Positions 9,638 through 52,149 of a stretch of DNA of 64,000 nt are shown one piece after another (positions within the stretch are counted from its first letter, which is position 1; each line of letters opens with the position of its first letter). Below the pieces are notes generated by a model. The model worked only from the letters and a program-made list of their open reading frames with translations, was not told the origin of the DNA and made no database searches. Made by a program: the position numbers and the translations under genes. The stretch is from Patescibacteria group bacterium (lineage in GTDB: Bacteria > Patescibacteriota > Patescibacteriia > UBA11705 > DATKZF01), in assembly GCA_049319825.1 (NCBI GenBank), contig JBMORT010000006.1:235641-299640 (forward strand). Direction: 5' to 3'.

Positions 9638-9641
9638 GATT

Positions 9642-12848: not shown

Positions 12849-12851
12849 TTT

Positions 12852-15781: not shown

Positions 15782-15828
15782 TAAATCATAAGGCCGAATT
15801 GATTATTTTTTCGGTCTTGATAAAAAAT

Positions 15829-22165: not shown

Positions 22166-22342
22166 TCGTATTGATAAAAAACAATAAATTTATAATTTTG
22201 TCAAGGTGCCTGGTTCTTGATTTTTTCCCCCTTTTCCGCTATAATAATTGAATAATTTTAATATCACATGAGTATTTACTTTCGCATCAAAATATCTTAC
22301 CATTAATGCTGTAACGTTTTTATTAATTTGGCGACCTCTACA

Positions 22343-22897
22343 ATGAATAAGAACAAATTTACAATCAAATATCTTGTTTATCAGACTAGAAACCAAAAAG
22401 ATCCGGAAAGCTTTGCCAGGCTTTACGATATGTATGTGGATCAAATTTTCCGCTTTGTTCGCTTTAAGGTGGAGACGGAAGAAATCGCTCAGGATATCAC
22501 CTCAGATATTTTTTTAAGAACTTGGCAATATCTTTTGGAAAGTTCAAGGCCAATTGATAACTTCAACGCGTTGATATACCGAATTTGCCGGAACTGCGTT
22601 GTCGATCATTATCGGAAAAGAAGTCGGGAAGCGCAGGTTTATAACGCGGAAAATTTTGAGCAGCTGATACATGACCGCCAGGATATAACCGAGGATATAG
22701 ATAATAAAATCGATTTTGGTCAGATCGAAGAAAAGCTGAAACTGCTTAAGGAGGAATACCGGGAAGTGATCATCTTGCGATACGTGGAAGGATTAACCGT
22801 AAGCGAGATTTCCAAAATATTGGATAAAACAAAAAGCAATGTCAGGGTGCTGATACACCGCGCGTTAAAAACATTAAAAGACATCATTCATGACTGA
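22343..22897 (+). CDS. ECF-type sigma-70 family RNA polymerase sigma factor
   Basis: Region 2: FARLYDMYVDQIFRFVRFKV...DITSDIFLRTWQ. Region 4: REVIILRYVEGLTVSEISKILDKTKSNVRVLIHRALKTLK. Confidence 0.75.
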   Translation: MNKNKFTIKYLVYQTRNQKDPESFARLYDMYVDQIFRFVRFKVETEEIAQDITSDIFLRTWQYLLESSRPIDNFNALIYRICRNCVVDHYRKRSREAQVYNAENFEQLIHDRQDITEDIDNKIDFGQIEEKLKLLKEEYREVIILRYVEGLTVSEISKILDKTKSNVRVLIHRALKTLKDIIHD

Positions 22898-24128: not shown

Positions 24129-24307
24129 TTAAAAACCAAAGGGCATTACCTATATTTATTAATAATCAGCTCTTTAGGTTGTCGTAGCCTGAAAGGTCGA
24201 GTCCTAGCGATAGGGCGACTATGACATAATTTTAGATAGAGGCCTCGGCACTCTAACATTCTATAAGGATGTTAAAGAGCCAAGAGGTACAGGAGATTTC
24301 ATTAACT

Positions 24308-27964: not shown

Positions 27965-28007
27965 TCGTTGATATACGCAGTTGGCGGTCAGCTTTAAACC
28001 GCTGCGC

Positions 28008-28040
28008 AAAAGCCCCCGGCCGTTTGGCCGGGGCTTTTGT
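28008..28040 (+). terminator. rho-independent terminator
   Basis: aaagcccccggccgtttggccggggcttttg: 9-bp GC stem and T-run. Confidence 0.55.
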
Positions 28041-28182
28041 ATTAATTAGGCAGTGGGCAGAAGGAAATAGGCAAGAGTAATGCATCGATTGCTGCATACC
28101 TGCCCTCTGCCCGCCGCCTTTCGTTTTTTCTTTTAATTTGGTTTATGCTATAATATTATCAGCCAATCATAACTTCGCGTAT

Positions 28183-29823: not shown

Positions 29824-29983
29824 GGAGTTAGAGTTACCGTTTGTGGATAAGTTATAAAAAATAATTATTTTAGCTGTATAATGTCAGCAGAAAGAACTAT
29901 AAAATTTATATAAAATTTAGGGCATCTAATTTTGCTCGAATTTAATTATTATTAAAAAAATTTTGCATTTTTTAAAAAAAATT

Positions 29984-34216: not shown

Positions 34217-34335
34217 AGTTAATATAATAAAAAAGGGCTTTGGCGAGTCCTTTTTTATTTCAAGTTTTGTGGATAAATTGTTTACAATTATTGAAAATAA
34301 TTGTATAATAATAAATGATTTTTTAAAAAAAATAT

Positions 34336-36756: not shown

Positions 36757-36772
36757 AAATAAAATTTATGAA

Positions 36773-36800
36773 CGCCCTCGGTTTCCGGGGGCTTTTTTTT
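36773..36800 (+). terminator. rho-independent terminator
   Basis: gccctcggtttccgggggcttttttttat: 7-bp stem with one G-U, T8 run. Confidence 0.55.
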
Positions 36801-36884
36801 ATAACTTAAATATGGTTAAATAGTAAAATACAGCCGTTAGAAAGAATTTTTGTCTAAAATTGTATTAAAAAATAGAATAATGAC

Positions 36885-37439
36885 ATGGATTATTCCAATC
36901 TTGACGACATCAGTATTGTCGAAATCACAATAAAAAACGATAAAAATGCTTTTGCGGTGCTAATTTCCAGATATCAGGGTAAATTGTTTTCCTATATTTT
37001 AAGGTTGATAAATCATCGCGAGGAGTCTGCGGATGTTCTGCAAGAGGTGTTTTTAAAGGCTTACAAAAGTTTAAAAAGTTTTAATTCCAAAAAAAGTTTT
37101 TCCAGCTGGATATATCGAATCGCTCACAATGAATCGGTCAATTGGCTGAAAAAAAACACCAAATATAAAAAGCAATCGCTTGATGATGAAAACAATCCAA
37201 TTGACGTGTCGGACAGTCATGATCTTTCGGCGGCGTCAATAATCAACGAAGAAAGGGTTGAATTGATTAAATCGCTGGCTAAATTGCCAATCAAATATAA
37301 GGAAGTGCTGGTGTTGCGGTTTGTTGAGGAAAAATCATATGAAGAAATTTCTCAAATTATCAGCAAGTCGGTCAATGCCGTCGGCATTATGATCAATCGC
37401 GCGAAAAAAATGTTGGCGGAAATTCATAAAATTGATTAA
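36885..37439 (+). CDS. ECF-type sigma-70 family sigma factor
   Basis: Region 2 LISRYQGKLFSYILRLINHREESADVLQEVFLKAYKSL...FSSWIYRIAHNESVNWLKK. Region 4 YKEVLVLRFVEEKSYEEISQIISKSVNAVGIMINRAKKMLAE. Confidence 0.75.
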   Translation: MDYSNLDDISIVEITIKNDKNAFAVLISRYQGKLFSYILRLINHREESADVLQEVFLKAYKSLKSFNSKKSFSSWIYRIAHNESVNWLKKNTKYKKQSLDDENNPIDVSDSHDLSAASIINEERVELIKSLAKLPIKYKEVLVLRFVEEKSYEEISQIISKSVNAVGIMINRAKKMLAEIHKID

Positions 37440-37447
37440 ATGCAAGT

Positions 37448-38389
37448 ATGAACAATTGGGAAAAAAAATTAGGCGGTTTGCGACAGGATTTTAACGTTGA
37501 GGTTCAAGCTCGGGTAATGGAAAAAATAAGCAATGTTAAAATGACGCCGAAAATATATTTTCAATCAAAAAAGACATTGATGATTTTATTGTTTTTGTCG
37601 TTATTATTAGCTGTCGTGTTTATAATCAATTTGGCTTTATACGATGTTCAGCAAAGCGCCAGCTATGAATACATTAATTTTGGCGCATCCGGTATCGGCG
37701 TCTTTTTGCGCAATTTGCCTTATCTGCTACTGTTTAGCATGCTTGTTTTTCTGGCATTGTCCATCTGGATGATGTCCAAGTTTGAATTGTCTTATAAAAA
37801 ATATTTCGCTGTTTTCATTGTAGTTATCGTGGCCGGAACATCCATGGGCGGCACCGCGCTGTTTGCCTCCGGTTTCAACGATCAAATGCGAAATAAAGTT
37901 GATAATCAGGAATTGACAATGCCGCTGGTGCGGCCGGTCGCCCGTAAGCTTTATAATACATACGGACCGAGAATGATCGATCGCAGCTTGGTCGGCAGGG
38001 TCGCGGTGCCGCCCGGAGAATCGAGGGAAATGCTGGTGATAACGCCTCAGGGACAGCAGGTGACGGTGAAAATACAAAAAAATTGTAAAATAGTATCGGC
38101 GCAAGGAACAGTCGCTTCCGGCGACATGTTGATTATAATGGGTGAGCCGGTCGTTAATTTTCATGCCAGCGGCATTAAAGTTATCGAAGATCAGCGGCGC
38201 GCCATCGATATGATGAAAACGCTCAGCCGCCGGCAGCTGATGGTAAAATTCAGGAAACCAGAACCGCTCAACGACGCGATTGAGTTCCCTTTTGATCCGG
38301 AAAAAAAGATTAAATTTATGGAAAACATGGGCGGAGTGCTGCAATCGGGCAGCCAGGTTAAGACGGCGAATATTATTTGGGGCGATTGA
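37448..38389 (+). CDS. membrane protein downstream of the ECF sigma (possible anti-sigma factor)
   Basis: Short cytoplasmic N-term, then at least 3 predicted TM segments, then a ~180-aa extracytoplasmic domain. Position immediately 3' of the sigma gene with an 8-nt gap. Confidence 0.35.
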   Translation: MNNWEKKLGGLRQDFNVEVQARVMEKISNVKMTPKIYFQSKKTLMILLFLSLLLAVVFIINLALYDVQQSASYEYINFGASGIGVFLRNLPYLLLFSMLVFLALSIWMMSKFELSYKKYFAVFIVVIVAGTSMGGTALFASGFNDQMRNKVDNQELTMPLVRPVARKLYNTYGPRMIDRSLVGRVAVPPGESREMLVITPQGQQVTVKIQKNCKIVSAQGTVASGDMLIIMGEPVVNFHASGIKVIEDQRRAIDMMKTLSRRQLMVKFRKPEPLNDAIEFPFDPEKKIKFMENMGGVLQSGSQVKTANIIWGD

Positions 38390-38867: not shown

Positions 38868-39449
38868 ATGCAAAAATTCATTGAACGACAAGCCGGCGGC
38901 ACTTACTTTTATTCCAGCACCGTGGCCGGCAAAAAAAACTTATTCGTCAGCCAAGTTTATCTTGATTTGATGATTAAAAATATCAAGGAGGTGGCCAAAG
39001 AGATGAACGTTAAAAACCTGGGGTATTTGATAATGCCAAATCATTTTTACTGGCTGTTTAAGCTGCCCAAAGAACAAGATAATCCCGTGAAAGTTTACGG
39101 TGAACTGAAAAAAAGAGTATCTTTTCAGATTCTGGACCAACTTCGCGCCGAAGCCAAGGTCGATGAAAAACAGCCGATGGTCAAGCTGTTCGATACGAAC
39201 GAGCGCGTTAGCCGCTCTCACGCTAGAAGAATCATTTGGTTTTTTAAGGAAGAGGCGAAAAAGCTTGAAAACGGAAAAAAAATGAAAATGTGGGAAACTG
39301 ATTCAAAATTGAATTTGGTCAAAGACGAGGAGTCTTTGGGTAGAGCGATTGAGGTATTGAAAAGCGGGCCGATCAAAGATCGATGGCAATTGGTGGAAAA
39401 ATCGGAAGATTATCCTTATTTGTTTTTATCGCCAAAGCCGTGTGTTTGA
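38868..39449 (+). CDS. IS200/IS605-like (RAYT/Y1 HuH transposase-like) protein with a degenerate HuH motif; probably inactive or domesticated
   Basis: LGYLIMPNHFYWLFKLP aligns to the canonical (h)AYxLMPNHVHLLh motif of Y1/RAYT proteins, but H-V-H is replaced by H-F-Y. C-terminal SEDYPYLFLS resembles the RAYT C-terminal EDYPWSS motif. Flanked on both sides by GC-rich palindromes. Confidence 0.45.
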   Translation: MQKFIERQAGGTYFYSSTVAGKKNLFVSQVYLDLMIKNIKEVAKEMNVKNLGYLIMPNHFYWLFKLPKEQDNPVKVYGELKKRVSFQILDQLRAEAKVDEKQPMVKLFDTNERVSRSHARRIIWFFKEEAKKLENGKKMKMWETDSKLNLVKDEESLGRAIEVLKSGPIKDRWQLVEKSEDYPYLFLSPKPCV

Positions 39450-39623: not shown

Positions 39624-42341
39624 ATGAGTGATGAAAAAATGAAAAATAGGATTTGGCAATTAGGTCAATTCGAAATTAAATTTAAATATATGACATATGA
39701 TTTGAGAAAAGAACTACTCGTGCTGGCTTTAATCGGTTGCCTGCTGCTGATAAGTTCATTTTTTTTCATTCACCAGGCGCAGGCCGCAGATTTTTCCGTA
39801 GTTATCAGTGAGCTGGCCTGGGCCGGGTCGAGCTATTCGGCCAATGACGAATTCATTGAATTAAAAAATTTAACTGACCGGGAAATTGATTTAAGCGGCT
39901 GGAAATTAACCAAGCTTTCCGGCGGACAAGAGCAGGTAATGATCGAATTTCCGCCGGCAGCGATTATCGAATCAGAAAATTTTTTTGTGATATCTAATTT
40001 TGGCAGCGAAGATTCGGTTTTAAATATTGAACCGGACCTGGCAGATAGCGCGGTCAGTTTAAGCAATTCAAATCTGGAAATTAAATTATATGATTCAGCC
40101 GGCATATTAATCGATGTCGCCGGAGACGGCAGCGCGCCGTTTTACGGTGATAACGAATTTAAAGCTTCTATGGTCAGGAATTTTACTATTGGATCAGGTG
40201 AGATTGAATCATCCTGGTCAGGAAGCTTGATCTCGGAAAATTTGGATGCTGACGCCCCTGACTTCGCATCTCCGGCCGCGGAAAATTTTTTAGGAATTGA
40301 TATTATCCCGGCCGCTGACGATTTGACTGCTATCGAAGAGGAGAGCGTCGCTTCTGATGATGAAGTAATTATTGAAAATTTCGCCAGCGATGATGAGACG
40401 ATCAGTGAAGATATGGCCACACAAGACGCGTTGCCGGACATAATTGAAGACGCTGCCTCAGATGATCAGTCAGTGATTATCGAAGATGATACCGGCCAAG
40501 CGCCGCCAATAGCGGGCAAGCTGCTGATCAATGAAATCGCTTTTAAAGAAGATCAAGACTGGGTGGAACTGGCAGTGGCTGAGCAGGGAAATTTTAAGGG
40601 CTGGAAAATATTTCAAGGCGAAAGCTTGATTTCAGAGATAAATCAGGACTCAGTTTATCCACAGGGTAGTTTTATTTTAATAAATTTAGATAAAAATTTG
40701 ACCGGAACTGACAATGTCATAGTCGTGCGAAATGAAAATTATGAAATCGAAGATACGGCGCTTTGGAGCAATCATGATGGCAAATTTACCAAATCAAAGG
40801 CTTTCGCAGTGTACTTGGTCGAAACCGAACAATGGCTGACAAAAAATGATTTTGAAAAAAATGACGAAGTTTCCTGGATCAGCAGCGATGAGCTGAAAGC
40901 GGGCATGAGCTTGGCGCGAGTTTCGGATATTGATACCAATTCCGGCAATGACTGGATTATTACCGCCAAGCAAACGCCCGGACAGGAAAACGAGATTTGT
41001 TTTGCGTCATCGACTGATCCAGTCTCAGATGATCTGAATTCAGCTTCTGATGCATCGAGTGAGGATCTTGATGAAGCAGTATTGCCAATCGATGAGCCAG
41101 TGCCGGTCGATGTGGTCGGAAAGATAGTCATTAATGAAGTTTTAAGCCAGCCTGAAAGCGGGCAGCCGGAATGGGTCGAGATTTACAATTTGTCTGCCGC
41201 GGAGATTGAGGTGACTGATTTTTATCTGCAAGAGGGAAGCGGAACCAAATTTAAACTTAAGGGCAAATTGCCCGCGAAAAAATATATGGTGGTCAACGTT
41301 AAAAATTTAAATAATGCCGGCGACCTGTTGCAGCTGCATACCGGCGATGGTCAATTGCTCGATCAGATGGTTTATGGTTCTTTGGATAACACTCAAATTG
41401 ACTTTGATTTTCAAAAGATCGTATTGCCATATGCGTTAATACGCGACCGCAGCGGATTTTGGAAGCTGACGACATTGCCGACTCCGGGCAGTGAAAATAT
41501 TTTTCAAGAAATGATTGAAGAAAAAGAATCCCAAGTTAGCGGCGTGAAAGCGGTGTCGGTTCAAGCGACATCTTCGTCGAAGAAGACTGCTCAGACGGTG
41601 GCGCAGCCTATCGTTTTAACCCGAGGCAATGTTGATTCGCTTGAAGATGATGACTTGGTTTATTTCGCAGGCACAGTGACGGTCACTCCGGGATTGTTTC
41701 TGAAGCAAAGAATGTACGCTCAAAATGAAGATATCGGCGTGGAAATATATTTTAACAGAGCGGATTGGCCGAATTTGAAAATCGGCCAGCAAATCCGAGT
41801 CAGCGGCAAATTCGCGGCCAAGGATTTGCCTCAAATAAAAATTTATTCAACCGACGATATTCAGGTTTTGGGGAGTGGCGAAGCTGAGCTAAAGGAATTT
41901 AAGCTGGCCGACCAGGAAAATTTAATCGGATTTTTAACCGCCGGCGACGGAGAAGTATCTGAAAAATTGGCCGGAGGATTTAATCTGGTGACCGCCGAAG
42001 GCGATGTGCCGGTTTGCTTTAGGCAAAACGCCAAGCTGGATACCGGTCAGATTGAAAACGGCCAGCGCATATTTGTCAGCGGAATTTTATTGCCATATAA
42101 AGACAGCGTCTGTTTATATCCCAGAATCGATGAGGATATGTCGATTTTGCCGTCCGCGGCAGAGCTGGCCGCTCCGATCAGCGAATCCGTGCCGCTAGGC
42201 GGAAATTTGCCCGCGAAGTCCATTTTGACAGTCGCCGCCGGGGTTTTAGCCGGTGGTTTGGGGGTGATTACATTAATAAAAAAATTAAAATCTTTAAAAA
42301 AGATTTCCCCCCTATGGCCGGGCGTCGGCAACACCAAATGA
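39624..42341 (+). CDS. lamin tail domain (LTD)-containing surface protein with three LTD copies, acidic linker regions and a C-terminal TM anchor
   Basis: LTD signatures VVISELAWAGSSYSANDEFIELKNLTDREIDLSGWKL; KLLINEIAFKEDQDWVELAV...FKGWKI; KIVINEVLSQPESGQPEWVEIYNLSAAEIEVTDFYL. Signal peptide. C-term ILTVAAGVLAGGLGVITLIKKLK. Start may be M at 39690. Confidence 0.6.
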   Translation: MSDEKMKNRIWQLGQFEIKFKYMTYDLRKELLVLALIGCLLLISSFFFIHQAQAADFSVVISELAWAGSSYSANDEFIELKNLTDREIDLSGWKLTKLSGGQEQVMIEFPPAAIIESENFFVISNFGSEDSVLNIEPDLADSAVSLSNSNLEIKLYDSAGILIDVAGDGSAPFYGDNEFKASMVRNFTIGSGEIESSWSGSLISENLDADAPDFASPAAENFLGIDIIPAADDLTAIEEESVASDDEVIIENFASDDETISEDMATQDALPDIIEDAASDDQSVIIEDDTGQAPPIAGKLLINEIAFKEDQDWVELAVAEQGNFKGWKIFQGESLISEINQDSVYPQGSFILINLDKNLTGTDNVIVVRNENYEIEDTALWSNHDGKFTKSKAFAVYLVETEQWLTKNDFEKNDEVSWISSDELKAGMSLARVSDIDTNSGNDWIITAKQTPGQENEICFASSTDPVSDDLNSASDASSEDLDEAVLPIDEPVPVDVVGKIVINEVLSQPESGQPEWVEIYNLSAAEIEVTDFYLQEGSGTKFKLKGKLPAKKYMVVNVKNLNNAGDLLQLHTGDGQLLDQMVYGSLDNTQIDFDFQKIVLPYALIRDRSGFWKLTTLPTPGSENIFQEMIEEKESQVSGVKAVSVQATSSSKKTAQTVAQPIVLTRGNVDSLEDDDLVYFAGTVTVTPGLFLKQRMYAQNEDIGVEIYFNRADWPNLKIGQQIRVSGKFAAKDLPQIKIYSTDDIQVLGSGEAELKEFKLADQENLIGFLTAGDGEVSEKLAGGFNLVTAEGDVPVCFRQNAKLDTGQIENGQRIFVSGILLPYKDSVCLYPRIDEDMSILPSAAELAAPISESVPLGGNLPAKSILTVAAGVLAGGLGVITLIKKLKSLKKISPLWPGVGNTK

Positions 42342-42571
42342 TCGGTCATCAATGGGCATTAATTTTTTGCAGATATTATAATGTCGTGCTGTTGATAACT
42401 CGCAAAGATCGCTTCGGCAGAGGCGATTTTTGTGTTATAATTAGAATAACTAGGATTGCGCCTAGAATTTATTAAGATTTAAAAAATCTGAAAATTTTTC
42501 TGAATAAAATTGTTCAAAAAGCCAAGGCGCTATTATTTTCGGTTAAACAAAATAAAGCGCGGTCGTTCACC

Positions 42572-44977
42572 GTGGCCACCATTGTTTTTTTGATTCTGGG
42601 CATTGGCTTGGCTTTTAACTCGGCCTTGGCCCAATCTGTGATCGGCGACACATTGGCTCAGGCTTTTGCCTGGATTTTTTACGGTATCGCTTATTTACTC
42701 GGCTGGATCACGATGTTGATTTTTTCCATGGTGATTACCATGAGCGGATTTCAGGATTTCATCAATAATCCCGGCGTCATTACCGGCTGGACCATTGTGC
42801 GCGACATTTGCAACATGTTTTTTGTGGTCATTCTTTTAATCATCGCTTTCGCCACGATTTTGCAAAGTGAAAAATATTCGATCAAGTCGCTTTTGCCCAG
42901 AGTTATTTTTGCCGCCGTGGTTATAAATTTCAGTAAATTGATTTGCGGTTTGATAATAGATTTCGGACAGATTGTCATGTTGACATTCGTTAACGGATTC
43001 AAGGCATCGGCCGGAGCCAATTTAATCAATGGCTTGCGGATGCAAAGCTGGATGTCGCTGGACACGGCCAACGCCAAGGATGTCAATGAAGTTGATTTTT
43101 GGGACATCACGTTGGCTTTATTTTTAGCATGCATTTTATTTTTCTTTACGTTGATCGTGACGATCATCATGCTGGCCATCATCACCATTCGAATTATAAT
43201 TTTATGGATATTGATAGTCCTGTCGCCGTTTGCTTTTGTCGGCACACTGCTGCCGTTTACGCAGTCGCTGGCCCGGCAATGGTGGTCAAAGTTCGGTACC
43301 TGGGTGGCGATCGGTCCGATTTTAGCTTTTTTCTTATGGTTGTCGCTGCTGATGATGCAAACCGGCATCAGCACGGATTTGGACGCGATCACCACCGAAG
43401 CTAACGTAAAATCCCAGATTACAGGCAAAAAACTTCAGGGCGGCAATTTATCGCAAGGATCGTCGATGCCCAATATGGCGCAGTTTGCGGTTGGCGTGGC
43501 CCTGCTTTACGGCGCCGTGACGCTGACGCGTCAAATGGGCGGCGCGGTCGGCGGCGCCATCGGCGGCAAAGTCTTCGGCGCGGCCACTGGTGCGGCGTTT
43601 GCCCTCACCGGCGCCAGAGCGGTGACCGAGCGGGCCAAAGCTGTCAGTGGCGTTTTGCAGCGCCGACGTGCGGAGAGAGTCTCTCGTTTTGGAGAGCGAG
43701 CCGGAGCGGCGATAACCAGAGTGACCGAACCGGTCAGAGCGGCGGCGTTGGGTGCGGCAGTCACACCGTTCAGAGTGTTGGGAGCGCCTCTTCGAGCGCC
43801 TAGGATTTTGGGTGCGATGCGTGAGCGCTACAGGCAAATCCGCGAAGGCGGCGGCGGCAAAGCGCTGGCCGCGCTGAGCGCAGGTATAAAATTACCGAGT
43901 GAGATATTAGATACCAGAAAATTCGCTTCTTCGATTCGAGCGGCCAGAAACAAATCTCGCGGTGCGGCTTATGAATTAAGTCGCAATGAAGTGACTAAAA
44001 ATTTGGCAGATTTTAAAAATGCCAGATTTGATCCGGAGCAATCTGTCCGCTTGATGTCCGAAGCCGGCACGACGGAGGAACAAGTCGCTCATGCTATTTA
44101 CGCGCTCAAAAAAGGCAAAATAACGGAAGAAAATAATAAACCGTTGATGCGATTATTGTCCAAGGTCGAAAATACTCCGCTCGGAGACGTTTTGGCCGAT
44201 GAGACCAATAAAAAATTCGCCCATGCGCGATTTCAGTTGGATAATTTTGATCAACGTCAAAAGTTAATGGAAGTGCACGATGACGGCGATACTGATTTGA
44301 CCAATCTCGATCCCAGCGCTTACAAAGACGCCCGGGTGGTCGAGACAATCATGGAAAAATTCGGCTCGAACGCGGATCAAATGTTTAAAAAAGTTTTTGA
44401 GCGGGGAGGAAAATACGCGGAGAGTTTAGTTGAGGGGCTTAATGCGGTGAACACGCCAGAATTTCAGCAAAGCGTTCGTGATCGGTCCAAAGAATTAACC
44501 GATAAAGGCCCGGCCGAATGGACCGCCTCCGAGGAAAAGGAAGCGGAATTATTGGAAAATGTCATAAAATTCAAGCCGCAGGAGACTGTCGCGAAATTGA
44601 CGACCAAGCCGTTTACCGTCTTCACAAAAGAAACCGATCCGGATATGAAATCTCTTGGGGAATTCGTTAAAAAGCAAAAAGTGGAAGATATTGAAAAATA
44701 TAAAGTTGAAAAAGATTCTGTGGGCAGACAGCGGCTGGCCGGTGCGACCGATGATCAGCGAGCGGCAGTGGCCATGAATGTCGGTTTTGAAAAGCTGGCC
44801 GCGATAATGAAGCGCGGTCAGGGAGACGTGGTTAAAGCCGTCATTAATAAGAAAATAGAATTGGCGTCCGCCGGAAACGTGACGCAAAAGAAAGATTTGC
44901 AAATAGCCATTCAAAATCAAACGTTTATGGATAGCCTTGAACCTGAAATGCAAAAGGAAATTAAAGGAGCCGTTTAA
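42572..44977 (+). CDS. VirB6/TrbL-like polytopic membrane protein with long Ala/Gly/Arg-rich hydrophilic C-terminal extension
   Basis: Signal peptide plus about 7 TM helices in the first ~270 aa (ICNMFFVVILLIIAFATIL; LALFLACILFFFTLIVTIIMLAIITIRIIILWILIVLSPFAFVG), the architecture of T4SS VirB6/TrbL channel subunits. Lies in the same operon-like run as PrgI-like and VirB4. Confidence 0.45.
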   Translation: MATIVFLILGIGLAFNSALAQSVIGDTLAQAFAWIFYGIAYLLGWITMLIFSMVITMSGFQDFINNPGVITGWTIVRDICNMFFVVILLIIAFATILQSEKYSIKSLLPRVIFAAVVINFSKLICGLIIDFGQIVMLTFVNGFKASAGANLINGLRMQSWMSLDTANAKDVNEVDFWDITLALFLACILFFFTLIVTIIMLAIITIRIIILWILIVLSPFAFVGTLLPFTQSLARQWWSKFGTWVAIGPILAFFLWLSLLMMQTGISTDLDAITTEANVKSQITGKKLQGGNLSQGSSMPNMAQFAVGVALLYGAVTLTRQMGGAVGGAIGGKVFGAATGAAFALTGARAVTERAKAVSGVLQRRRAERVSRFGERAGAAITRVTEPVRAAALGAAVTPFRVLGAPLRAPRILGAMRERYRQIREGGGGKALAALSAGIKLPSEILDTRKFASSIRAARNKSRGAAYELSRNEVTKNLADFKNARFDPEQSVRLMSEAGTTEEQVAHAIYALKKGKITEENNKPLMRLLSKVENTPLGDVLADETNKKFAHARFQLDNFDQRQKLMEVHDDGDTDLTNLDPSAYKDARVVETIMEKFGSNADQMFKKVFERGGKYAESLVEGLNAVNTPEFQQSVRDRSKELTDKGPAEWTASEEKEAELLENVIKFKPQETVAKLTTKPFTVFTKETDPDMKSLGEFVKKQKVEDIEKYKVEKDSVGRQRLAGATDDQRAAVAMNVGFEKLAAIMKRGQGDVVKAVINKKIELASAGNVTQKKDLQIAIQNQTFMDSLEPEMQKEIKGAV

Positions 44978-44980
44978 TGT

Positions 44981-46453
44981 ATGACCAGCAAAATCACAAA
45001 TAAAATGGCTGATAAAGTGTTTGCTTCCAGCTTTGGCGCATGGATAAATTTTGATGTCGCCTCGCAGTATAAAATAAGCTCGAAAAAGTTGGTCGACTTT
45101 GCCGATATTATCAATTCAATAATGTTAAAGAAGATCAAGCTGGAGAATTTGGATAAAGAATTGACCAAGCGATTACGATTGCCGGCGCAGAAATCAAAAC
45201 TCATCGCCAAAGAAATAACCGGCAGAAAATTTTTATTGATCGATGATTATTTCGGCGGTGCGGCCAGCAAGTATTTAACGGTATTGGGCGCGCGGCCGGA
45301 AAATTATAAAGATCAAATCGAATTATTAAAATCCAAATTGCACGAAGAGGATGCGCTGGTAGCGGAAAAAGAAACGCCGTTTGAGGGGTTCATTACCCCG
45401 GCGGAGAAAAAAGAATCAGGGTCATTGCCGCCGATAGAGATAAAAGATCAGGAGAAAGACGCTCGGGAAATCGCTTCGATATTCGACGAGCAGGTGATGG
45501 GCATTATCAATGACGGTGATTTTCGGCTGAAAGGGGATTTAAACGCTTATATTGTCTTGCTGCTGCTCGAGAAAGAAGATTTTCGTCAGACTTTGCTTCA
45601 AAAAATGGTTAATAACCGTGAAAAAGTGACCGCCAAAGAGATAGTCATCGGCGGTCAGCCCAGCGAGCCGAACGTTAGTAATTGGCTGAAGGATTTTATT
45701 TCCATCGTTGGCGTGGATGGTTCGGTGTCTTCCATCAATAAAGCGAGATACATGTCGGAAAGCAAAAACGTTCGTTCGCTATCGGCGGATGAACAGCGAC
45801 GGCTGGATATGGTGCTTGATGTTTACACCAGTATCAGGAATTTTCCGCAAGACGCCACGCGGATGAATTTAGGAGATATTGCCATTTTTCCGTTTAGTGA
45901 CGAGGATATTAAGGCAATGAAAGCCGCCGCCGAGTCCGTGAAGACCAAGCCGGCCACTCCCCGGCAGTTGCCAAAAGACATATTCGAGCTCTACATGGGC
46001 AGCAAGGAAGAGCAGGCGAAAATCGAAGCGGCCAAAGAAGCTTTGGAGAATAAAATTTCAGGCAACGTCAAATTGCTCGCCGATGAGCTGGAAGATGGAT
46101 TTTTAAAGAAAGAAAAACAAAAAACGATCGCCGCGCTGATGTTGCTGGTTGAAAAAGGAGCGTTCATAAATTTACTTCGAGAAGACATCAGATACCGTGA
46201 TTATTTAACCAGTTATTTGAATCGCGTCGGTAAAGCGACACTGGTCAATTCATTCGTCGTCAATCCAACCCAGCCGCAGTTCGTTATTTATTTATTAAAA
46301 TACATTCTCGAGGAAAGATTGAGCCTGTCGGTTTCGGAAGCCGCCCGAATTGCCGCCCATTTCAATACGATTTATACCAAGCGCGGTCAGGAACAGTACG
46401 GCAGGCTGGCATATTTCGATATGAACGAGCAGACATTCGTGTGGGGACAGTAG
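44981..46453 (+). CDS. hypothetical protein (490 aa) of the T4SS-like module
   Basis: ORF immediately after the VirB6-like gene (4-nt gap). No TM. No recognised motifs. Confidence 0.4.
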   Translation: MTSKITNKMADKVFASSFGAWINFDVASQYKISSKKLVDFADIINSIMLKKIKLENLDKELTKRLRLPAQKSKLIAKEITGRKFLLIDDYFGGAASKYLTVLGARPENYKDQIELLKSKLHEEDALVAEKETPFEGFITPAEKKESGSLPPIEIKDQEKDAREIASIFDEQVMGIINDGDFRLKGDLNAYIVLLLLEKEDFRQTLLQKMVNNREKVTAKEIVIGGQPSEPNVSNWLKDFISIVGVDGSVSSINKARYMSESKNVRSLSADEQRRLDMVLDVYTSIRNFPQDATRMNLGDIAIFPFSDEDIKAMKAAAESVKTKPATPRQLPKDIFELYMGSKEEQAKIEAAKEALENKISGNVKLLADELEDGFLKKEKQKTIAALMLLVEKGAFINLLREDIRYRDYLTSYLNRVGKATLVNSFVVNPTQPQFVIYLLKYILEERLSLSVSEAARIAAHFNTIYTKRGQEQYGRLAYFDMNEQTFVWGQ

Positions 46454-46474
46454 AAATAAAAAAGCTTTTTTTTC

Positions 46475-47458
46475 TTGGATATATGTATGCCCCAACAAAA
46501 TCAGCAAAAGAATACCAATGACCAGCCGCTGGCTTTTGAATTTGTTTTGGTGAAGGATGAGAGCGGGGAGTTCAAATATTATCATCACGGCCGTTTTTAT
46601 TCGTACGCTGAGGTGTCAAATTTACTCAGCCCCAAAGAATTGGAGAAATTGAATCAGCAGCGGCCAATTCAGCCAACGATTGAAAAAGAACCGGTGCCGG
46701 CGGAAATGCCGGTTGACAAGCGTCAGCTGGAGCAGCAAATGATCGAGGCGGTGGCTCGCCGGGCATACTCAGCCATTACCGAAAAAATCGGAAAACAGGA
46801 TGAAAACAAGATGATGAATATAATTATCTCATTTCTGCGCCTGGTTAGAAAAGAGGTGGAAATCAAATATATCTTAACCGCTTCGATGCGCTCCGGAGGT
46901 ATTGGACTCGATGATCAGCGCGCTGAGACGGTAATTCAAATTATAAAAAGTTTCCTGCCGGAAATATCCCGCAAACGACTAAAAATTTTACGCGGGGAGC
47001 CGCTGGAGATCGAATCGCGCCAGACTCCACCCATAGCCAAATCCGCCGAACCGGCGCCGCTGATCGGCCGGAAAAAATTAAGCGGCCTCGATGAAACGAA
47101 ACCAGTGATTTCCGATATCACACTCGGCCCCGGACTGACCGGTCCGGTTGAGGAGCTCGGCGGCATGGATTTAATTAATATCCGAAGACTCGGATCAAAC
47201 CGGGAAGAGATCGTCAGTGAAATAATGGAAAGAATAAATCTTTTGGCGGAACAGTCGCTGGAGCAGAAAATCAGGGGCATTAAGGCTTGGCAGCAATCGC
47301 CGGTTTATCGCATGTACGTTGATTTGGGATTTGAAAGCATCAGCAATAACATTCCAGTGGAAAAATTGATCGAACAAAAAATCGCCGAGGGAAAAAAAGT
47401 ATTAAACAGAGAAGAATTTCAGGCGATGGTGGAGATAAACGGCAGGATGCAGTTTTAA
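46475..47458 (+). CDS. hypothetical protein (327 aa) of the T4SS-like module
   Basis: Long ORF with a 21-nt gap to the upstream gene; no recognised motifs. Confidence 0.4.
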   Translation: MDICMPQQNQQKNTNDQPLAFEFVLVKDESGEFKYYHHGRFYSYAEVSNLLSPKELEKLNQQRPIQPTIEKEPVPAEMPVDKRQLEQQMIEAVARRAYSAITEKIGKQDENKMMNIIISFLRLVRKEVEIKYILTASMRSGGIGLDDQRAETVIQIIKSFLPEISRKRLKILRGEPLEIESRQTPPIAKSAEPAPLIGRKKLSGLDETKPVISDITLGPGLTGPVEELGGMDLINIRRLGSNREEIVSEIMERINLLAEQSLEQKIRGIKAWQQSPVYRMYVDLGFESISNNIPVEKLIEQKIAEGKKVLNREEFQAMVEINGRMQF

Positions 47459-47517
47459 GGCGAAAGTCGAGAGGCGAGAAGCGAGAGGCGAAAGACGAAA
47501 CACGAAATACGAAAATT
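47459..47517 (+). repeat. degenerating ~14-nt tandem repeats (ggcgaaagtcgaga / ggcgagaagcgaga / ggcgaaagacgaaa / cacgaaatacgaaa)
   Basis: Read directly from the sequence. No spacers, so not CRISPR-like. Confidence 0.4.
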
Positions 47518-47612
47518 GATAATTGTTGATTCTTATAACCCGGATTCCCCGAATAGTTTGCTACAGGCTACATGTTATATGCTATGTGCTACGTGCTCCA
47601 TGTATTATCAAT

Positions 47613-48065
47613 ATGGCTGTCCAAAAATATATCGTTCCACAATTCATCGAAGTCGAAGACAAAATAATCGGTCCGATTACCGTTCGGCAGTTTATATTAC
47701 TTTTGGTCGGCGGCTTGATTATTTTTTTGCTGTGGCAATTCGGCGGTTTGTTGGCGCTGATCGCCGGTGGAATTTTGGATATCGCGGTTTTCGCCGGTTT
47801 GGCCTTTGTCAAAATCAACGGCCGGCCGATTCATTTTTTTCTGCTAAACTTTATCCAAACCATGAAGCGGCCTCGATTGCGTATTTGGAACAAAGAAGCG
47901 TATGTGAGCGCGGTTCATGAAAAAAAAGAGGTGGAAGAAAGACCCATGACCGCCAAAGCGCCCAAACCGGCCATTACCGGTTCGCGGTTGTCCGATTTGA
48001 GCTTGGTGGTCAATACCGGCGGTGTTTATCAGGGAGAAGAATTGTCTCTTGGTAATCAAAAATAA
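47613..48065 (+). CDS. PrgI/VirB3-like small membrane protein of Gram-positive-type T4SS
   Basis: MAVQKYIVPQFIEVEDKIIGPITVRQFILLLVGGLIIFLLW matches the PrgI-family N-terminal pattern (Y-x-VP-x-x-x-x-V-x-D/K-K-I-x-x-x-LT-x-RQ-LI), then two TM helices. ORF opens at 47523 but the M at 47613 is the conserved start. Confidence 0.5.
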   Translation: MAVQKYIVPQFIEVEDKIIGPITVRQFILLLVGGLIIFLLWQFGGLLALIAGGILDIAVFAGLAFVKINGRPIHFFLLNFIQTMKRPRLRIWNKEAYVSAVHEKKEVEERPMTAKAPKPAITGSRLSDLSLVVNTGGVYQGEELSLGNQK

Positions 48066-48068
48066 CAT

Positions 48069-48782
48069 ATGACCAATAAAAGACCGGAAATGCAAAGCGA
48101 AAAACTGAAAAAAAAGAGCGTCAGCCAGTCGACTCAGCTTTTTCTGGACATTTCCGAAATTCGAAACAACACCGTGATTCTAAAAGACGGCACGCTCCGA
48201 GCGGTTATTTTAGTTTCCAGCGTGAATTTTGCTCTCAAATCGGAGGAAGAGCAGCAAGCGATTGTCGCCGCCTATGTGGGTTTTTTAAATTATCTTGATC
48301 ATCCAATTCAAATCGTGATTCAATCCAGGAAATTGAATATCGAAGGATATATCGCGCGTCTGCATGAGCGAGAAAAAGAAGTCACCAACGAACTGTTAAA
48401 AAAACAGATAGACAATTACATACAATATGTTCAAGAACTGGTTGAGCTAGGCGATATTATGAGTAAAAGATTTTTTTTGGTTGTGCCGTACAGCCCGCTC
48501 GAAGAAAAAGCGCAGGCCAAACCGTCCGGATTCTTTTCCAAACTTTCGGCGCTGTTTACTCCCGGACAGGTGATTAAGCTGAAAAAGGAAAAATTTGAAA
48601 AATATTACCGTCAACTGATGCAGCGAGTCGATCATATTCAGGGTAATTTGAACAGCATGGGACTAAAATCTGCTCAGCTGGATACTCAAGGACTGATCGA
48701 GCTGTATTACAATGTTTATAATCCCGGCATGGCCGAGCAGCAGCAACTGAGTGATGTTGAAAAATTAAGGTTGGAGACATAA
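48069..48782 (+). CDS. VirB4/TraE-family N-terminal domain (split from the ATPase domain)
   Basis: TQLFLDISEIRNNTVILKDGTLRAVILVSSVNFALKSEEEQQAIVAAYVGFLNYLDHPIQIVIQS is the conserved N-terminal segment of Gram-positive VirB4 homologues (PrgJ/TcpF type). Stop TAA is 1 nt before the ATG of the next ORF, in a different frame. Confidence 0.5.
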   Translation: MTNKRPEMQSEKLKKKSVSQSTQLFLDISEIRNNTVILKDGTLRAVILVSSVNFALKSEEEQQAIVAAYVGFLNYLDHPIQIVIQSRKLNIEGYIARLHEREKEVTNELLKKQIDNYIQYVQELVELGDIMSKRFFLVVPYSPLEEKAQAKPSGFFSKLSALFTPGQVIKLKKEKFEKYYRQLMQRVDHIQGNLNSMGLKSAQLDTQGLIELYYNVYNPGMAEQQQLSDVEKLRLET

Positions 48783-48783
48783 T

Positions 48784-50712
48784 ATGATAAAACCAATTGG
48801 CATCGAACCCAAAAAAGCGGCTGAGCCGCGTTCAAAGACAACCGAGCAAGTCGAAGCCGAAAAGACCAAAAAAACCATTGAAGAGCAGCGCGTTTACGCG
48901 CGCGGTGTCGTTTCCATTTTGGATTTGGTGGCGCCGTCGGCGCTGGAGGTTAAACCGGATTATATTCGTCTCGGATCCAGGTTTATTCGAACATTGTTCG
49001 TATTGACGTATCCGCGCTATATCAGTGTCGGCTGGTTCGCGCCGATCATCAATTATAACGCCACGCTGGACATCAGCATGTTTTTTTACCCGCTAAAATC
49101 GGATATCGTGTTAAAACAATTGAGAGATAAGGTGGGCGTGCTGCGCGCGCAGCTGACCGCGGATGCGGAAAAGGGCGCGCCGCGCGACCCGATGAGGGAA
49201 ACCGCACTGCAAGATATTGAACAGCTCAGAGACGATTTGACTCAGGGTATTGAAAAGTTTTTCCAATTTTCACTTTACACCACCTTATACGCAAAAAGCG
49301 TTAAAGAGCTCGATGATCTGACCGAAGACGTTGAAGACCTGTTCGGATCAAAATTGGTTTTCACCAAGCGAGTGCTGTATCAATCCGAGCAAGGGTTCAA
49401 TTCGACAGTGCCGATCGGCAATGATGAATTGATGATTTCCGCCAATCTTAACTCATCGCCGATTGCTTCTTCTTTTCCGTTCGTTTCATCCGAATTGACC
49501 AGCGATCAGGGGGTGCTGTTCGGCATCAATCGACACAATAACAGCTTGATTATTTTCGATCGTTTCACTTTACCGAACGCCAATGCGGTGGTATTCGCCA
49601 CTTCGGGAGCCGGAAAAAGCTATACCATTAAATTAGAGGTGCTGAGGACAATGATGCTCGGCACGGATATAATGATTATCGATCCGGAAAGAGAATACAA
49701 GCATTTAAGCGACGCGGTTGGCGGCAGTTATGTCAATATCTCATTGGCCTCGGAAAGCAAAATCAATCCGTTTGATTTGCCTCGCCCCGTCGGCGAGCAG
49801 ACTTCGTCTGAAGACATTATTCGCAGCGCGGTGATTACCTTAAAAGGCTTGATTCGGCTGATGATTGGCGACCTGAGTTATCAGGAGGATTCCATCATCG
49901 ATCAAGCCTTGCTTCAAACATACGCCAAAAAAGATATTACTCCGGAAACCGATCTGACCAAGCCGGTGGAGCCGCCGCTGATGGGCGATTTGTATGAAGT
50001 GCTCGAAGGCATGGAGGGCGGGCATGATTTGGCGCTCAGACTGAAAAAATTCACTGAAGGCACTTTTTCCGGTTTGTTCAATTCTCCGACAAACGTTGAC
50101 GTAAAAAATCAATTGGTTGTTTTTTCTGTAAGAGATTTGGAAGACGAACTGCGTCCGATGGCCATTTATAACATTGTCAGCCATATCTGGAACACGGTCA
50201 GATCTGAATTGCGGCGGCGCATTTTAATTATCGATGAAGCGTGGTGGCTGATGCAGCGAAAAGATTCGGCTGATTTCATCTACGCTTTGGTTAAGCGCTG
50301 CCGAAAGTATTATTTGGGCGTCACCACCATCACCCAAGATGTCAATGACTTTTTGATTTCCACGCAGGGAAAAGCGATCCTGCAGAATTCAGCCATTCAG
50401 TTTTTGCTGCGACAGTCGCCGGCGGCGATTGATTTGGTTCAGGAAACTTTTCAATTAACCGAGGGTGAAAGATATTTATTGCTCGAAGCCGGGGTCGGTG
50501 AAGGCATATTTTTTGCCGGCGACAGGCACGCGGCCATTAAAGTGGTCGCCTCGGGTATGGAGGATCAGCTGATTACTTCCGATCCGCGGCAGCTCCTCGA
50601 GATCGAGCGCGCCAGAAAAGAAATGGAAGAAGAAATGGCTGCCGGGCGAGACCAGCTTCAAACGCAGCGACAGCTGAGACAACAATCCGGGCCGGGCGAT
50701 AAATCTAAATAA
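48784..50712 (+). CDS. virB4: VirB4-like type IV secretion ATPase, C-terminal ATPase domain
   Basis: Walker A VVFATSGAGKSYTIK; Walker B RRILIIDEAWWLM; ITQDVNDF. About 640 aa, consistent with the C-terminal two-thirds of VirB4/TrsE/CagE. Confidence 0.8.
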   Translation: MIKPIGIEPKKAAEPRSKTTEQVEAEKTKKTIEEQRVYARGVVSILDLVAPSALEVKPDYIRLGSRFIRTLFVLTYPRYISVGWFAPIINYNATLDISMFFYPLKSDIVLKQLRDKVGVLRAQLTADAEKGAPRDPMRETALQDIEQLRDDLTQGIEKFFQFSLYTTLYAKSVKELDDLTEDVEDLFGSKLVFTKRVLYQSEQGFNSTVPIGNDELMISANLNSSPIASSFPFVSSELTSDQGVLFGINRHNNSLIIFDRFTLPNANAVVFATSGAGKSYTIKLEVLRTMMLGTDIMIIDPEREYKHLSDAVGGSYVNISLASESKINPFDLPRPVGEQTSSEDIIRSAVITLKGLIRLMIGDLSYQEDSIIDQALLQTYAKKDITPETDLTKPVEPPLMGDLYEVLEGMEGGHDLALRLKKFTEGTFSGLFNSPTNVDVKNQLVVFSVRDLEDELRPMAIYNIVSHIWNTVRSELRRRILIIDEAWWLMQRKDSADFIYALVKRCRKYYLGVTTITQDVNDFLISTQGKAILQNSAIQFLLRQSPAAIDLVQETFQLTEGERYLLLEAGVGEGIFFAGDRHAAIKVVASGMEDQLITSDPRQLLEIERARKEMEEEMAAGRDQLQTQRQLRQQSGPGDKSK

Positions 50713-50727
50713 TAATAAAAATTCAAT

Positions 50728-51321
50728 ATGCTAGACAGACTATCAGTCGGATCGAAAATCATCATATTATCCTTAATCGGCATTATCATCATTGCCGCCA
50801 TTGTTTTGGGTTTTTTGTATTACCGACAGCGCCAACAGCCGACCGGACCGGCGGTGATTGATGAAACGACCTCTCCGCCTCGGCAGACGATTATTCCAAC
50901 AGAACCGTCTAAACCGTCGGTGGTATTGCCCGCCATGACCGATGAAGAAAAAAATTCCGAAGAATTGACCAATTTGGCCAAGATTTTTGCCGAGCGATTC
51001 GGCAGTTTTTCCAATCAGGGCGGATTCGATAATTTGGATATTGTTCAGTCGATGGCGACCGACAGCATGAAATCATGGCTGGTCAGTCAGAAAAAAAGCT
51101 TGGAACAGAAGTATCCGATCAGCGATGCGTATTATGGAGTAACCACTCAATCGCCGATCGCCAAAGTATTGAGTTATGGTGAAAATAACGCTTCTGTGCT
51201 GGTAACCACTCAGCGGCAAGAAAGAAAGAATGGTGATGAAAATAATTATACGCAAGACATAAAAATTGAATTTGTTAAAATAAACGGCAATTGGTTAATC
51301 AATGCAGCATACTGGCAATAA
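50728..51321 (+). CDS. membrane-anchored protein (N-terminal TM, Pro-rich linker, ~130-aa globular domain); possibly VirB8-like
   Basis: MLDRLSVGSKIIILSLIGIIIIAAIVLGFLYY TM anchor. The placement between VirB4 and ComFC, and the bitopic architecture, fit VirB8/TcpC-type proteins. No sequence-level proof. Confidence 0.3.
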   Translation: MLDRLSVGSKIIILSLIGIIIIAAIVLGFLYYRQRQQPTGPAVIDETTSPPRQTIIPTEPSKPSVVLPAMTDEEKNSEELTNLAKIFAERFGSFSNQGGFDNLDIVQSMATDSMKSWLVSQKKSLEQKYPISDAYYGVTTQSPIAKVLSYGENNASVLVTTQRQERKNGDENNYTQDIKIEFVKINGNWLINAAYWQ

Positions 51322-52024
51322 AAATCTTTTTTTTCGAATACAGAACGCTCTCCTCGATTTATTGTTTCCCAAAAAATGTTTGGGTTGCAAGCAGGAGGGT
51401 TGTTTTTTGTGCGCGGATTGCTTCGCTGGTTTAGAGGTTGGGGTTGAGAAAAAATGCGCTATTTGCGGCCGAGAAATATTAAATTTAAATCAAATTTGTG
51501 AAAATTGCCGGCCAAATTTTTTGTTCGATTCGATCTGGTCGGCCAGTCATTATCAAGGGCTGATAAAAGAACTGATCAGCGCTCTCAAATTTGATTACAT
51601 TGAGGAAATCGCCGAGGGATTGGCTCGACATTTCGTGCGGGCGATTGACAAAGCCGGGTTAGCTGATAAACTGAAGGGACAGATTATAACACCCGTGCCG
51701 CTTCATAAAAAGCGGTATTTGGAAAGGGGATTCAACCAATCAGAATTGATTAGCGCGAAAATAGCGGAATTATTGGGAATGAAATTAGCTCGGGGTGCAT
51801 TATTAAGGATAAAAAACACGCGTCAGCAGTCCAAACTTAACAAATCAGAAAGGATTGAAAACATGCGCGAGGCGTTTAGCGCCACTCTGGCGCCGGCGCC
51901 GGAATTCGTTTTTTTATTCGATGATGTTTTTACCACCGGCCAGACCACGAATGAGGCGGCCAAAGCGCTGAAGATCGCCGGTGTCAAGCAGGTTCATGTT
52001 CTGGCGATAGCTCAGGGGAGATAG
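51302..52024 (+). CDS. comFC: ComF family protein (ComFC-like phosphoribosyltransferase-domain competence protein)
   Basis: N-terminal Zn-finger CxxC...CxxC (CLGCKQEGCFLCADC ... CAICGREI). SASHYQGLIKELISALKF; PRTase motif FLFDDVFTTGQTTNEAAKALKIAG. Confidence 0.75.
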   Translation: MQHTGNKNLFFRIQNALLDLLFPKKCLGCKQEGCFLCADCFAGLEVGVEKKCAICGREILNLNQICENCRPNFLFDSIWSASHYQGLIKELISALKFDYIEEIAEGLARHFVRAIDKAGLADKLKGQIITPVPLHKKRYLERGFNQSELISAKIAELLGMKLARGALLRIKNTRQQSKLNKSERIENMREAFSATLAPAPEFVFLFDDVFTTGQTTNEAAKALKIAGVKQVHVLAIAQGR

Positions 52025-52025
52025 A

Positions 52026-52149
52026 GTTACAAATTTACATATTGATTACATATATTACAAATGGTTACAAATACCATAAATAGTTATCTGGCGATCATAT
52101 TGGTAACCCATTTGTAATATTTGTACATATTCGTAATTTGTAACCGTAT
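52026..52149. promoter_or_regulatory. repeat-rich intergenic region with at least 8 copies of GTTACAAAT/ATTTGTAAC-like words in direct and inverted orientation, upstream of murG
   Basis: gttacaaatttacatattgattacatatattacaaatggttacaaataccataaatagttatctggcgatcatattggtaacccatttgtaatatttgtacatattcgtaatttgtaaccg. Confidence 0.35.

Follow-up and report, generated by a model that had tools for sequence, protein, structure and literature searches.

A probable Patescibacteria-type chromosomal type IV secretion locus with comF attached, and the possible import of DNA through it

The window analysed here, a 64,000-nucleotide stretch of contig JBMORT010000006.1 from a Patescibacteria group bacterium (assembly GCA_049319825.1, positions 235,641 to 299,640 of the forward strand), carries a run of genes for a type IV secretion system (T4SS) that ends with a comF gene. 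The locus is very probably a chromosomal T4SS of the kind typical of ultrasmall Patescibacteria (the candidate phyla radiation, CPR) with comF attached to it, and this explanation, taken as a whole, is the best one with good confidence. The genes encode an extended VirB6 (VirB6L), two lineage-specific proteins of 490 and 327 residues (p490 and p327), PrgI/VirB3, TrsD, VirB4, a VirB8-like protein and ComF, in this order. The T4SS is a conserved, vertically inherited cellular apparatus with a Gram-positive-type (MPF-FATA-like) core; it descends from the monoderm MPF-FATA conjugation machinery, and its layout fits the one reported for the class ABY1 (Falkowbacteria-like). Since Quiñonero-Coronel et al. 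2025 have already published both the system and the hypothesis of DNA import, the present finding is confirmatory. An earlier interpretation made from the sequence alone (the sequence-only reading) had proposed a Gram-positive-type core that is not a conjugative element, as the profile matches and the housekeeping setting now uphold; the open reading frame (ORF) list of the window contains every ORF of the run at the coordinates given there, and the overlap between the last two genes was also correct.

The VirB4 protein had 574 confirmed relatives in GTDB species-representative genomes, and the best 80 loci were fetched, their ORFs being called and clustered for a comparison of gene order. VirB4 identity in these loci is 67–75%, and most of them come from Falkowbacteria, Parcubacteria or unclassified Patescibacteria metagenome-assembled genomes (MAGs). 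The order VirB6L–p490–p327–PrgI–TrsD–VirB4–VirB8-like is the rule across the 80 loci. Downstream sequence was sufficient to assess the gene after VirB4 in 62 of them: it is the VirB8-like gene in 58, and in 36 comF is the gene immediately downstream of the VirB8-like one, often with overlapping ends (negative gaps); in 3 more, comF is found no more than three genes downstream of VirB4. Of the 39 loci with at least 8 kb of downstream sequence, 37 encode one or more of ComF, RecG and RadA within 10 kb on that side (ComF in 26, RecG in 20 and RadA in 13). The sequence-only reading had proposed checking the conservation of an order from a lamin-tail-domain (LTD) protein through VirB6, PrgI and VirB4 to ComFC, which stands from VirB6L to the VirB8-like gene, and for ComF in the fraction just given, but fails for the LTD gene (see below). 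L002, L004, L007, L009 and many other loci, although of Patescibacteria type, come from records titled 'uncultured Gammaproteobacteria bacterium' (MAG TPA_asm), and the record of L080 is titled 'Nanoarchaeota archaeon'; such titles are probably wrong.

The surroundings of the locus are housekeeping genes (dnaX, murG, ftsE/X, divIC, ppiC, a P-type ATPase gene and tRNAs). Nearly all genes lie on one strand, the GC skew is steady across the window, and no compositional island was seen at the T4SS locus in the composition profile. The synteny of murG, the P-type ATPase gene, divIC and ppiC is common to the window and to three related loci (L001, L006 and L047). The domain scan of the window, performed with Pfam on the plus-strand ORFs of at least 100 residues that are not nested in a longer ORF, showed no VirD4-type coupling protein (T4CP), relaxase, integrase or VirB11 in the 64 kb, in line with the earlier claim, and no integrase, relaxase or T4CP was found in the approximately 2.5 kb past the right end of the window (L082). 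The window is a piece of Patescibacteria chromosome, not a mobile element. The lack of a coupling protein is a statement about the window: VirD4-like genes are present in many Patescibacteria, usually far from virB4, and relaxases are nearly absent from the group (PMC12102498).

The ATPase domain of VirB4 scores above the cut-off of the CD1110-type family NF045971 (E=1.5e-103; 347.5 bits against 325), matches PDB entry 4ag5 (E=1.7e-50) and keeps intact Walker A (ATSGAGKS) and Walker B (ILIIDE) motifs. Judged by its profile score and its identity to relatives, this VirB4 is of the Patescibacteria-clade type; the closest plasmid VirB4, on the Pontibacillus sp. megaplasmid NZ_CP062975, shares 36.6% identity. 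The N-terminal domain is encoded by a gene of its own, whose product matches NCBIfam VirB4_plasma over positions 93–239 (E=2.6e-13), TrsD/TraD (E=5e-7) and the TraC-like family PF26593. Because about 78 of the 80 loci encode this TrsD-like protein in an ORF of its own, the split of VirB4 is genuine and does not reflect a frameshift. The PrgI/VirB3-like gene, which like the TrsD-like gene adjoins virB4, has homologs of 141–160 residues in 75 of the 80 loci. Its translation probably begins at the ATG at 47613, which yields a protein of 150 residues, the length also called for this gene in L081; depending on the start, the gap to p327 measures 64–154 nt. The earlier assignments of PrgI and of VirB4 as an N-domain plus an ATPase domain are both borne out.

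The 801-residue protein that opens the run has about six transmembrane (TM) segments in residues 1–270, followed by a hydrophilic, coiled-coil-like tail of about 500 residues. Its sole match is a sub-threshold one to the NCBIfam pLS20_p028 conjugation TM protein (E=3e-4). The protein of the window has no Pfam match, but five of 40 members of its family match Pfam TrbL/VirB6 (best E=4.6e-5); a family profile searched against the PDB returned only coiled-coil noise from the C-terminal tail. VirB6L was found upstream of VirB4 in 40 of the 80 loci. The label 'VirB6-like', which the sequence-only reading had also given, is reasonable but weakly supported: topology and family matches speak for it, the missing Pfam match of the window protein does not.

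The two proteins encoded next, p490 and p327, lack TM segments and are probably cytoplasmic. No Pfam or PDB match was obtained for p490, either with the single sequence or with a family profile; its homologs, found by tblastn in 32 of the 80 loci, always lie between VirB6L and p327, and it is less conserved than p327. The latter is present in 68 of the 80 loci, always directly upstream of PrgI, and its family counts 2,488 representatives when clustered at 50% identity. The predicted structure of p327 (mean predicted local distance difference test score, pLDDT, of 83; confident by domain) comprises two helical domains, the C-terminal one conserved, as well as a small beta domain and a disordered linker, and no meaningful sequence or structural match emerged from Pfam, the PDB, the family profile or a structure search. 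A large family with a confident predicted structure, no known fold and a constant position upstream of PrgI is a lead worth following. A paralogous relationship between p490 and p327 was considered and rejected, as the two cluster together only via fusion proteins in other genomes. In L005, L008, L020, L033, L034, L046, L052, L066 and L067, genes for metK, ahcY, a sugar kinase and riboflavin synthase subunits lie between p490 and p327. Such housekeeping insertions imply that the VirB6L/p490 part is separable and that the tightest core runs from p327 through the VirB8-like gene.

The AlphaFold2 model of the 197-residue protein encoded after VirB4, built from 33 homologs (mean pLDDT 89.7), consists of an N-terminal TM helix, a linker and an extracytoplasmic NTF2-like domain. 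The top PDB matches of this model in Foldseek are CagV, the VirB8 domain of PrgL (7aed, pCF10, 21% identity), TraH of pIP501, TcpC, TrwG and the Agrobacterium VirB8; the VirB8-family matches have E-values of 5e-5 to 5e-4 and are interleaved with generic NTF2-like folds. On the basis of the predicted structure and the position right after VirB4 the protein is classed as VirB8-like, as had been tentatively suggested before.

The start of the comF gene overlaps the end of the VirB8-like gene by 20 nt (51302 against 51321), and the two are probably translationally coupled. The product is a divergent member of the ComF family. It contains nine cysteines in residues 26–69, a zinc finger region that reaches 32.8 bits against a cut-off of 27 for Pfam DZR_2, and a type-I phosphoribosyltransferase (PRT) domain with its phosphoribosyl pyrophosphate loop (FDDVFTTGQT motif), just below the Pfam cut-off (22.5 against 26.3 bits). 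The best NCBIfam matches are GntX (E=1e-31; 110 bits against a cut-off of 304) and TIGR00201 (E=2e-30; 106 against 233.55), so the earlier ComFC call agrees with the best matches and with DZR_2 but stays below the curated family cut-offs. No PDB match was found by sequence. The coupling of the VirB8-like gene to comF, direct in the 36 of 62 loci mentioned above, is a second lead. The coordinates of the features are collected in Table 1.

Table 1. Features of the T4SS–comF locus and its flanks (window coordinates).
Feature	Position	Strand	Basis
Membrane-anchored surface protein with lamin-tail domains, 905 aa	39624..42341	+	Pfam LTD, E=3.5e-28
LTD–VirB6L spacer, 230 nt	42342..42571	+	Hairpin, promoter-like hexamers
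Extended VirB6-like polytopic membrane protein (VirB6L), 801 aa	42572..44977	+	TM profile, family matches
p490, soluble lineage-specific protein, 490 aa	44981..46453	+	tblastn homologs
p327, soluble conserved protein, 327 aa	46475..47458	+	Homologs in related loci
PrgI/VirB3-like small membrane protein	47613..48065 (ORF open from 47523)	+	PF12666, E=1.6e-8, above cut-off
TrsD-like protein, free-standing VirB4 N-terminal domain	48069..48782	+	NCBIfam VirB4_plasma, TrsD/TraD, PF26593
VirB4 ATPase motor domain, CD1110/MPF-FATA type	48784..50712	+	NF045971, PDB 4ag5
VirB8/PrgL-like bitopic protein, 197 aa	50728..51321	+	AlphaFold2 model, Foldseek, position
ComF (ComFC/GntX-like), double zinc ribbon and type-I PRT domain	51302..52024	+	DZR_2, NCBIfam
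ComF–murG spacer	52025..52149	+	Long imperfect hairpin
c11-family protein, 164 aa	62971..63465	+	tblastn to c11 members, E=8e-35

Published work sheds light on what such a locus may do. The VirB4 proteins of Patescibacteria form a monophyletic clade related to MPF-FATA and are accompanied by TrsD, PrgI/VirB3, VirB6 and often VirB2-like pilins; VirB8/PrgL-like proteins were detected almost exclusively in the class ABY1, where the T4SS is frequently co-located with comF, recG and radA (PMC12102498). The supplementary tables of that survey hold no comF counts. Its authors proposed that the system takes up host DNA or other host macromolecules (Quiñonero-Coronel et al. 2025, PMC12102498), and a 2025 review counts it as a new T4SS type (PMC12857230). 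The cargo of this near-universal, relaxase-less T4SS matters for roughly a quarter of bacterial diversity, and the system is essential in one tested species. ABY1-type loci offer the clearest genomic hint of a DNA cargo, given the comF/VirB8-like coupling and the RecG and RadA neighbours.

In a mechanism of this kind VirB6L, PrgI and the VirB8-like protein would form a translocon in the cytoplasmic membrane, which the split VirB4 (TrsD plus the ATPase) would energise, with p327 and p490 acting at its cytoplasmic face. DNA would move inwards from a host cell or from the environment, and single-stranded DNA (ssDNA) would be handed to ComF for subsequent recombination or nucleotide salvage. Because comF and the VirB8-like gene are coupled, and RecG and RadA are repeatedly found beside the locus, inward-moving DNA would be the most likely substrate. 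DNA import as the role of the T4SS in this lineage, a conclusion drawn from the gene neighbourhood only, is put forward tentatively, as a distinct possibility that falls short of being probable. The linkage to ComF on which the earlier DNA-uptake proposal was built is real and conserved; the functional step is an inference from neighbourhood that had already been published. A more specific version, in which ComF docks on the VirB4/TrsD/VirB8-like complex, maybe via p327 and p490, and takes over ssDNA, so that the T4SS replaces or bypasses ComEC in ABY1, is unlikely. If it were true, the system would be the first T4SS importer of a bacterial monoderm and a route to host DNA for recombination or nucleotide salvage.

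Several observations weigh against DNA import. In Southlakia epibionticum (Saccharibacteria) the T4SS is essential for epibiotic growth, whereas comEC, comF and dprA are non-essential, ComEC being required for natural transformation (PMC10633639). The essential role of the T4SS in this organism is independent of the Com pathway, which means that the conserved role of the apparatus may be unrelated to Com-type uptake; Southlakia belongs to a lineage in which the comF linkage is missing. The ComF slot is devoid of ComF in about one third of the related loci, some of which have pilin/DsbA cassettes there, and the conservation of a neighbourhood within one class may in part be inherited synteny rather than function. 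The match of the ComF protein lies under the NCBIfam trusted cut-offs, and the identity of VirB6 rests on weak matches. That DNA is the substrate and that it travels inwards is a published hypothesis, here put forward with no more than tentative confidence.

The strongest alternative is host interaction, that is, the export of effectors or the contact-dependent uptake of molecules other than DNA, with the adjacency of ComF, RecG and RadA explained by inherited synteny or by shared expression needs. This reading has a substantial claim to be right, though one still short of an even chance. It accommodates the Southlakia phenotypes (PMC10633639), for which Wang et al. 2023, in view of the missing T4CP and relaxase, suggested protein export or 'an alternative capacity' (PMC10633639). 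It also fits the loci that swap ComF for cassettes resembling surface or host-contact functions. A DsbA-like thioredoxin and small proteins with two TM segments are encoded in them beside Cys-rich proteins that have a T4SS_pilin domain (PF18895); these cassettes occupy the ComF slot or its vicinity in L002, L007, L009, L030, L031, L045, L064 and others. Large surface proteins with Ig-like and LTD domains and pairs of extracytoplasmic function (ECF) sigma genes upstream of the T4SS point the same way. It explains less well why, in this locus as in many related ones, comF begins before the VirB8-like gene has ended, and why DNA-processing genes of three different kinds keep appearing around the locus, in 37 of 39 cases; moreover, no candidate effector or chaperone genes were recognised.

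The release of chromosomal DNA to neighbouring cells, as in the gonococcal genetic island (GGI) of Neisseria gonorrhoeae, is very improbable. The ancestry of the T4SS in DNA export and the DNA-processing genes nearby would suit it, but the known DNA-secreting T4SSs depend on a relaxase plus a coupling protein, both absent from the window. Moreover, ComF acts on incoming ssDNA (Damke et al. 2022, as cited in PMC10633639). Hardly credible at all is a conventional conjugative element (a remnant of an integrative and conjugative element or plasmid) with its coupling protein, relaxase and oriT outside the window. In its favour are a VirB4 of the conjugative CD1110 family, an upstream ORF with a weak IS200-like (HUH-family) match and the VirD4-like genes that many Patescibacteria have elsewhere, but the locus sits in a housekeeping synteny shared with L001, L006 and L047, shows no compositional island, has no integrase, relaxase or T4CP within 64 kb or in the 2.5 kb beyond, has the same core order in 80 loci from distinct species, and belongs to a group in which the published survey found relaxases in only 103 genomes (PMC12102498).

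Comparison with known systems places the locus among the Patescibacteria-clade T4SSs, including that of Southlakia epibionticum (SEML1_0006-0019), with which it shares the chromosomal location, VirB4, TrsD, PrgI/VirB3 and VirB8-like proteins, a putative VirB6-like one, the lack of a relaxase or T4CP nearby and, as in ABY1, the comF, recG and radA neighbours. It differs from them in having no adjoining gene for a VirB2-like pilin or a VirB1-like hydrolase, and in its upstream LTD gene, a trait of one small subclade. Neither a homolog of the PF18895 family nor a small ORF with two TM segments was found in window positions 20000–64000; relatives have pilin cassettes downstream of RecG/RadA, and one could likewise be encoded past the end of the window. 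Apart from a local pilin gene, and with its VirB6-like protein as a candidate, the locus has the features that define the Patescibacteria-clade system, and it works like a minimised Gram-positive T4SS. Neither p327, p490 nor the translational coupling of the VirB8-like gene and comF is named in the available portion of the survey (PMC12102498).

With the conjugative MPF-FATA systems (pCF10 Prg/Pcf, pIP501 Tra and CTn2/CD1110) the locus has in common a CD1110-family VirB4, PrgI, a polytopic, putatively VirB6-like protein, the predicted PrgL/TraH-like VirB8 fold and a TrsD-like protein as in pGO1. Unlike them, it lacks a PcfC/VirD4 coupling protein, a relaxase, a PrgK-type cell-wall hydrolase and a PrgB-type adhesin, and no oriT was seen, though no search aimed at it was made; its chromosomal position, its vertical conservation and its link to ComF also set it apart. 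A module on the Pontibacillus sp. megaplasmid NZ_CP062975 (L083, 344325-370067) comprises a pilin-like gene, genes for a 779-residue hypothetical protein, small ORFs and a 274-residue ORF, a split CD1110 VirB4 and a peptidoglycan hydrolase, with no annotated T4CP or relaxase within 12 kb, on a record typed as non-mobilizable; it differs from the locus in its pilin and hydrolase genes, the absence of ComF and its situation among flagellar genes of a Firmicute replicon.

The ComB system of Helicobacter pylori likewise has no relaxase or T4CP, with ComFC acting downstream of it, and imports DNA, as is proposed for the locus. ComB is nevertheless a diderm system that has VirB7/9/10 and needs a VirB11-like ATPase (PMC13395361). 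It brings double-stranded DNA to the periplasm only, ComEC and ComFC then effecting passage across the inner membrane, and comFC lies outside the comB operons. The source organism belongs to a group described as monoderm in the literature, the MPF-FATA ancestry of the locus is different, and the window scans contained no domains of a VirB7/9/10 core or a VirB11-like ATPase. A ComB system was rejected on the absence of an outer-membrane core and of VirB11. The crenarchaeal Ced system (CedA/CedB), which imports DNA into cells with a single membrane by means of a VirB4/HerA-like ATPase and a polytopic membrane protein and has no relaxase, was rejected as well, since the match of VirB4 to CedB is marginal (34 bits against a cut-off of 700) and CedA homologs are lacking; Ced is, in addition, archaeal and UV-induced.

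The LTD protein encoded upstream of VirB6L has a signal/TM segment at the N-terminus and a TM anchor at the C-terminus. Three lamin-tail domains had been proposed for it: two copies are significant in Pfam, and the third, at about residues 295–465, is degenerate and weakly similar to copy 3 (pairwise E=5e-5). A homolog at the same position was found in 4 of the 80 loci (L001, L006, L010 and L047), which are the closest relatives, and in other lineages the slot is taken by unrelated large secreted proteins (family c10). Between the LTD and VirB6L genes a spacer of 230 nt (minimum free energy, MFE, -57.9 kcal/mol; z=-3.4) contains a perfect 15-bp hairpin stem at 42401-42434 and two promoter-like hexamer pairs, the latter being consensus-level matches only. 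This spacer is a probable transcription-unit boundary, and the LTD gene is probably transcribed apart from the T4SS genes. Given its presence in only 4 of the 80 loci and the hairpin spacer, the LTD protein does not belong to the conserved T4SS set and is better regarded as peripheral, as one of the many variable surface proteins beside the system, than as a dedicated receptor for DNA, the role suggested for it earlier. The OB-fold match in its C-terminus (E=0.048), a mere hint of DNA binding, is not significant. In L081 a gene for a 53-residue protein was called in the LTD–VirB6L gap; its product is rich in Arg and does not resemble a pilin, and the call is probably spurious.

On the other side of the locus, the ComF–murG spacer is occupied by one long imperfect hairpin (MFE -34.5 kcal/mol; z=-4.3) made of TTACAAAT / ATTTGTAA words, and five of the seven copies of this 8-mer in the window sit in it. 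The hairpin suggests that the T4SS–ComF unit ends after comF, and the spacer may be a terminator, a processing site or an operator. The corresponding spacer of L001 has the same architecture with a different word (GTTGAT/ATCAAC). Across the window, a sigma-70 promoter scan did not exceed shuffled sequences (38 sites found against 32.9±6.0), whereas terminator-like sites did (35 against 24.0±3.9). As the promoter and terminator sites are consensus matches only, the operon boundaries rest mainly on the two hairpins. The tight packing and single operon formerly claimed for the whole run apply from VirB6L to ComF (holding best for 42572-52024), but not across the LTD–VirB6L spacer, and the p327–PrgI gap is also wider than had been thought.

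Upstream of the LTD gene, a 193-residue ORF (38868-39449) matches an IS200-like Y1 transposase below threshold (E=0.0033; 18 bits against a cut-off of 23). Its HUH motif is degenerate (NHFYW), a homolog occurs at the same place in L047, and the product may be a domesticated or decayed HUH protein. Further upstream lie two pairs of genes for an ECF sigma factor and a putative anti-sigma factor, at 22328-24128 (with DUF5667) and at 36885-38389. They flank genes for four very large secreted proteins of 1231, 561, 1417 and 806 residues with Big_1 and Big_5 Ig-like domains, and the G+C content of these genes (22328-38389) is raised to 0.45-0.55, compared with about 0.42 for the window. Within a glycosyltransferase/methyltransferase cluster at 3983-16743, a 174-residue ORF (10539-11063) matches the 360-position DegT/DnrJ/EryC1 aminotransferase profile over positions 13-78 only, and has the look of a truncated or fragmented gene.

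Among the pilin, DsbA, RecG, RadA, ComEC metallo-beta-lactamase and c11 families, only c11 had a homolog inside the window by tblastn. Members of this family, with two TM segments in the representative, precede RecG in 21 related loci, and here too a RecG gene (691 residues) comes after the c11 gene, just past the right end of the window (L082). Behind it, on the minus strand, come genes for a purine DNA glycosylase and for a cut protein of 407 residues, possibly radA. In L040, L054 and L077, a stand-alone metallo-beta-lactamase protein resembling the C-terminal domain of ComEC is encoded after the VirB8-like gene or after ComF.

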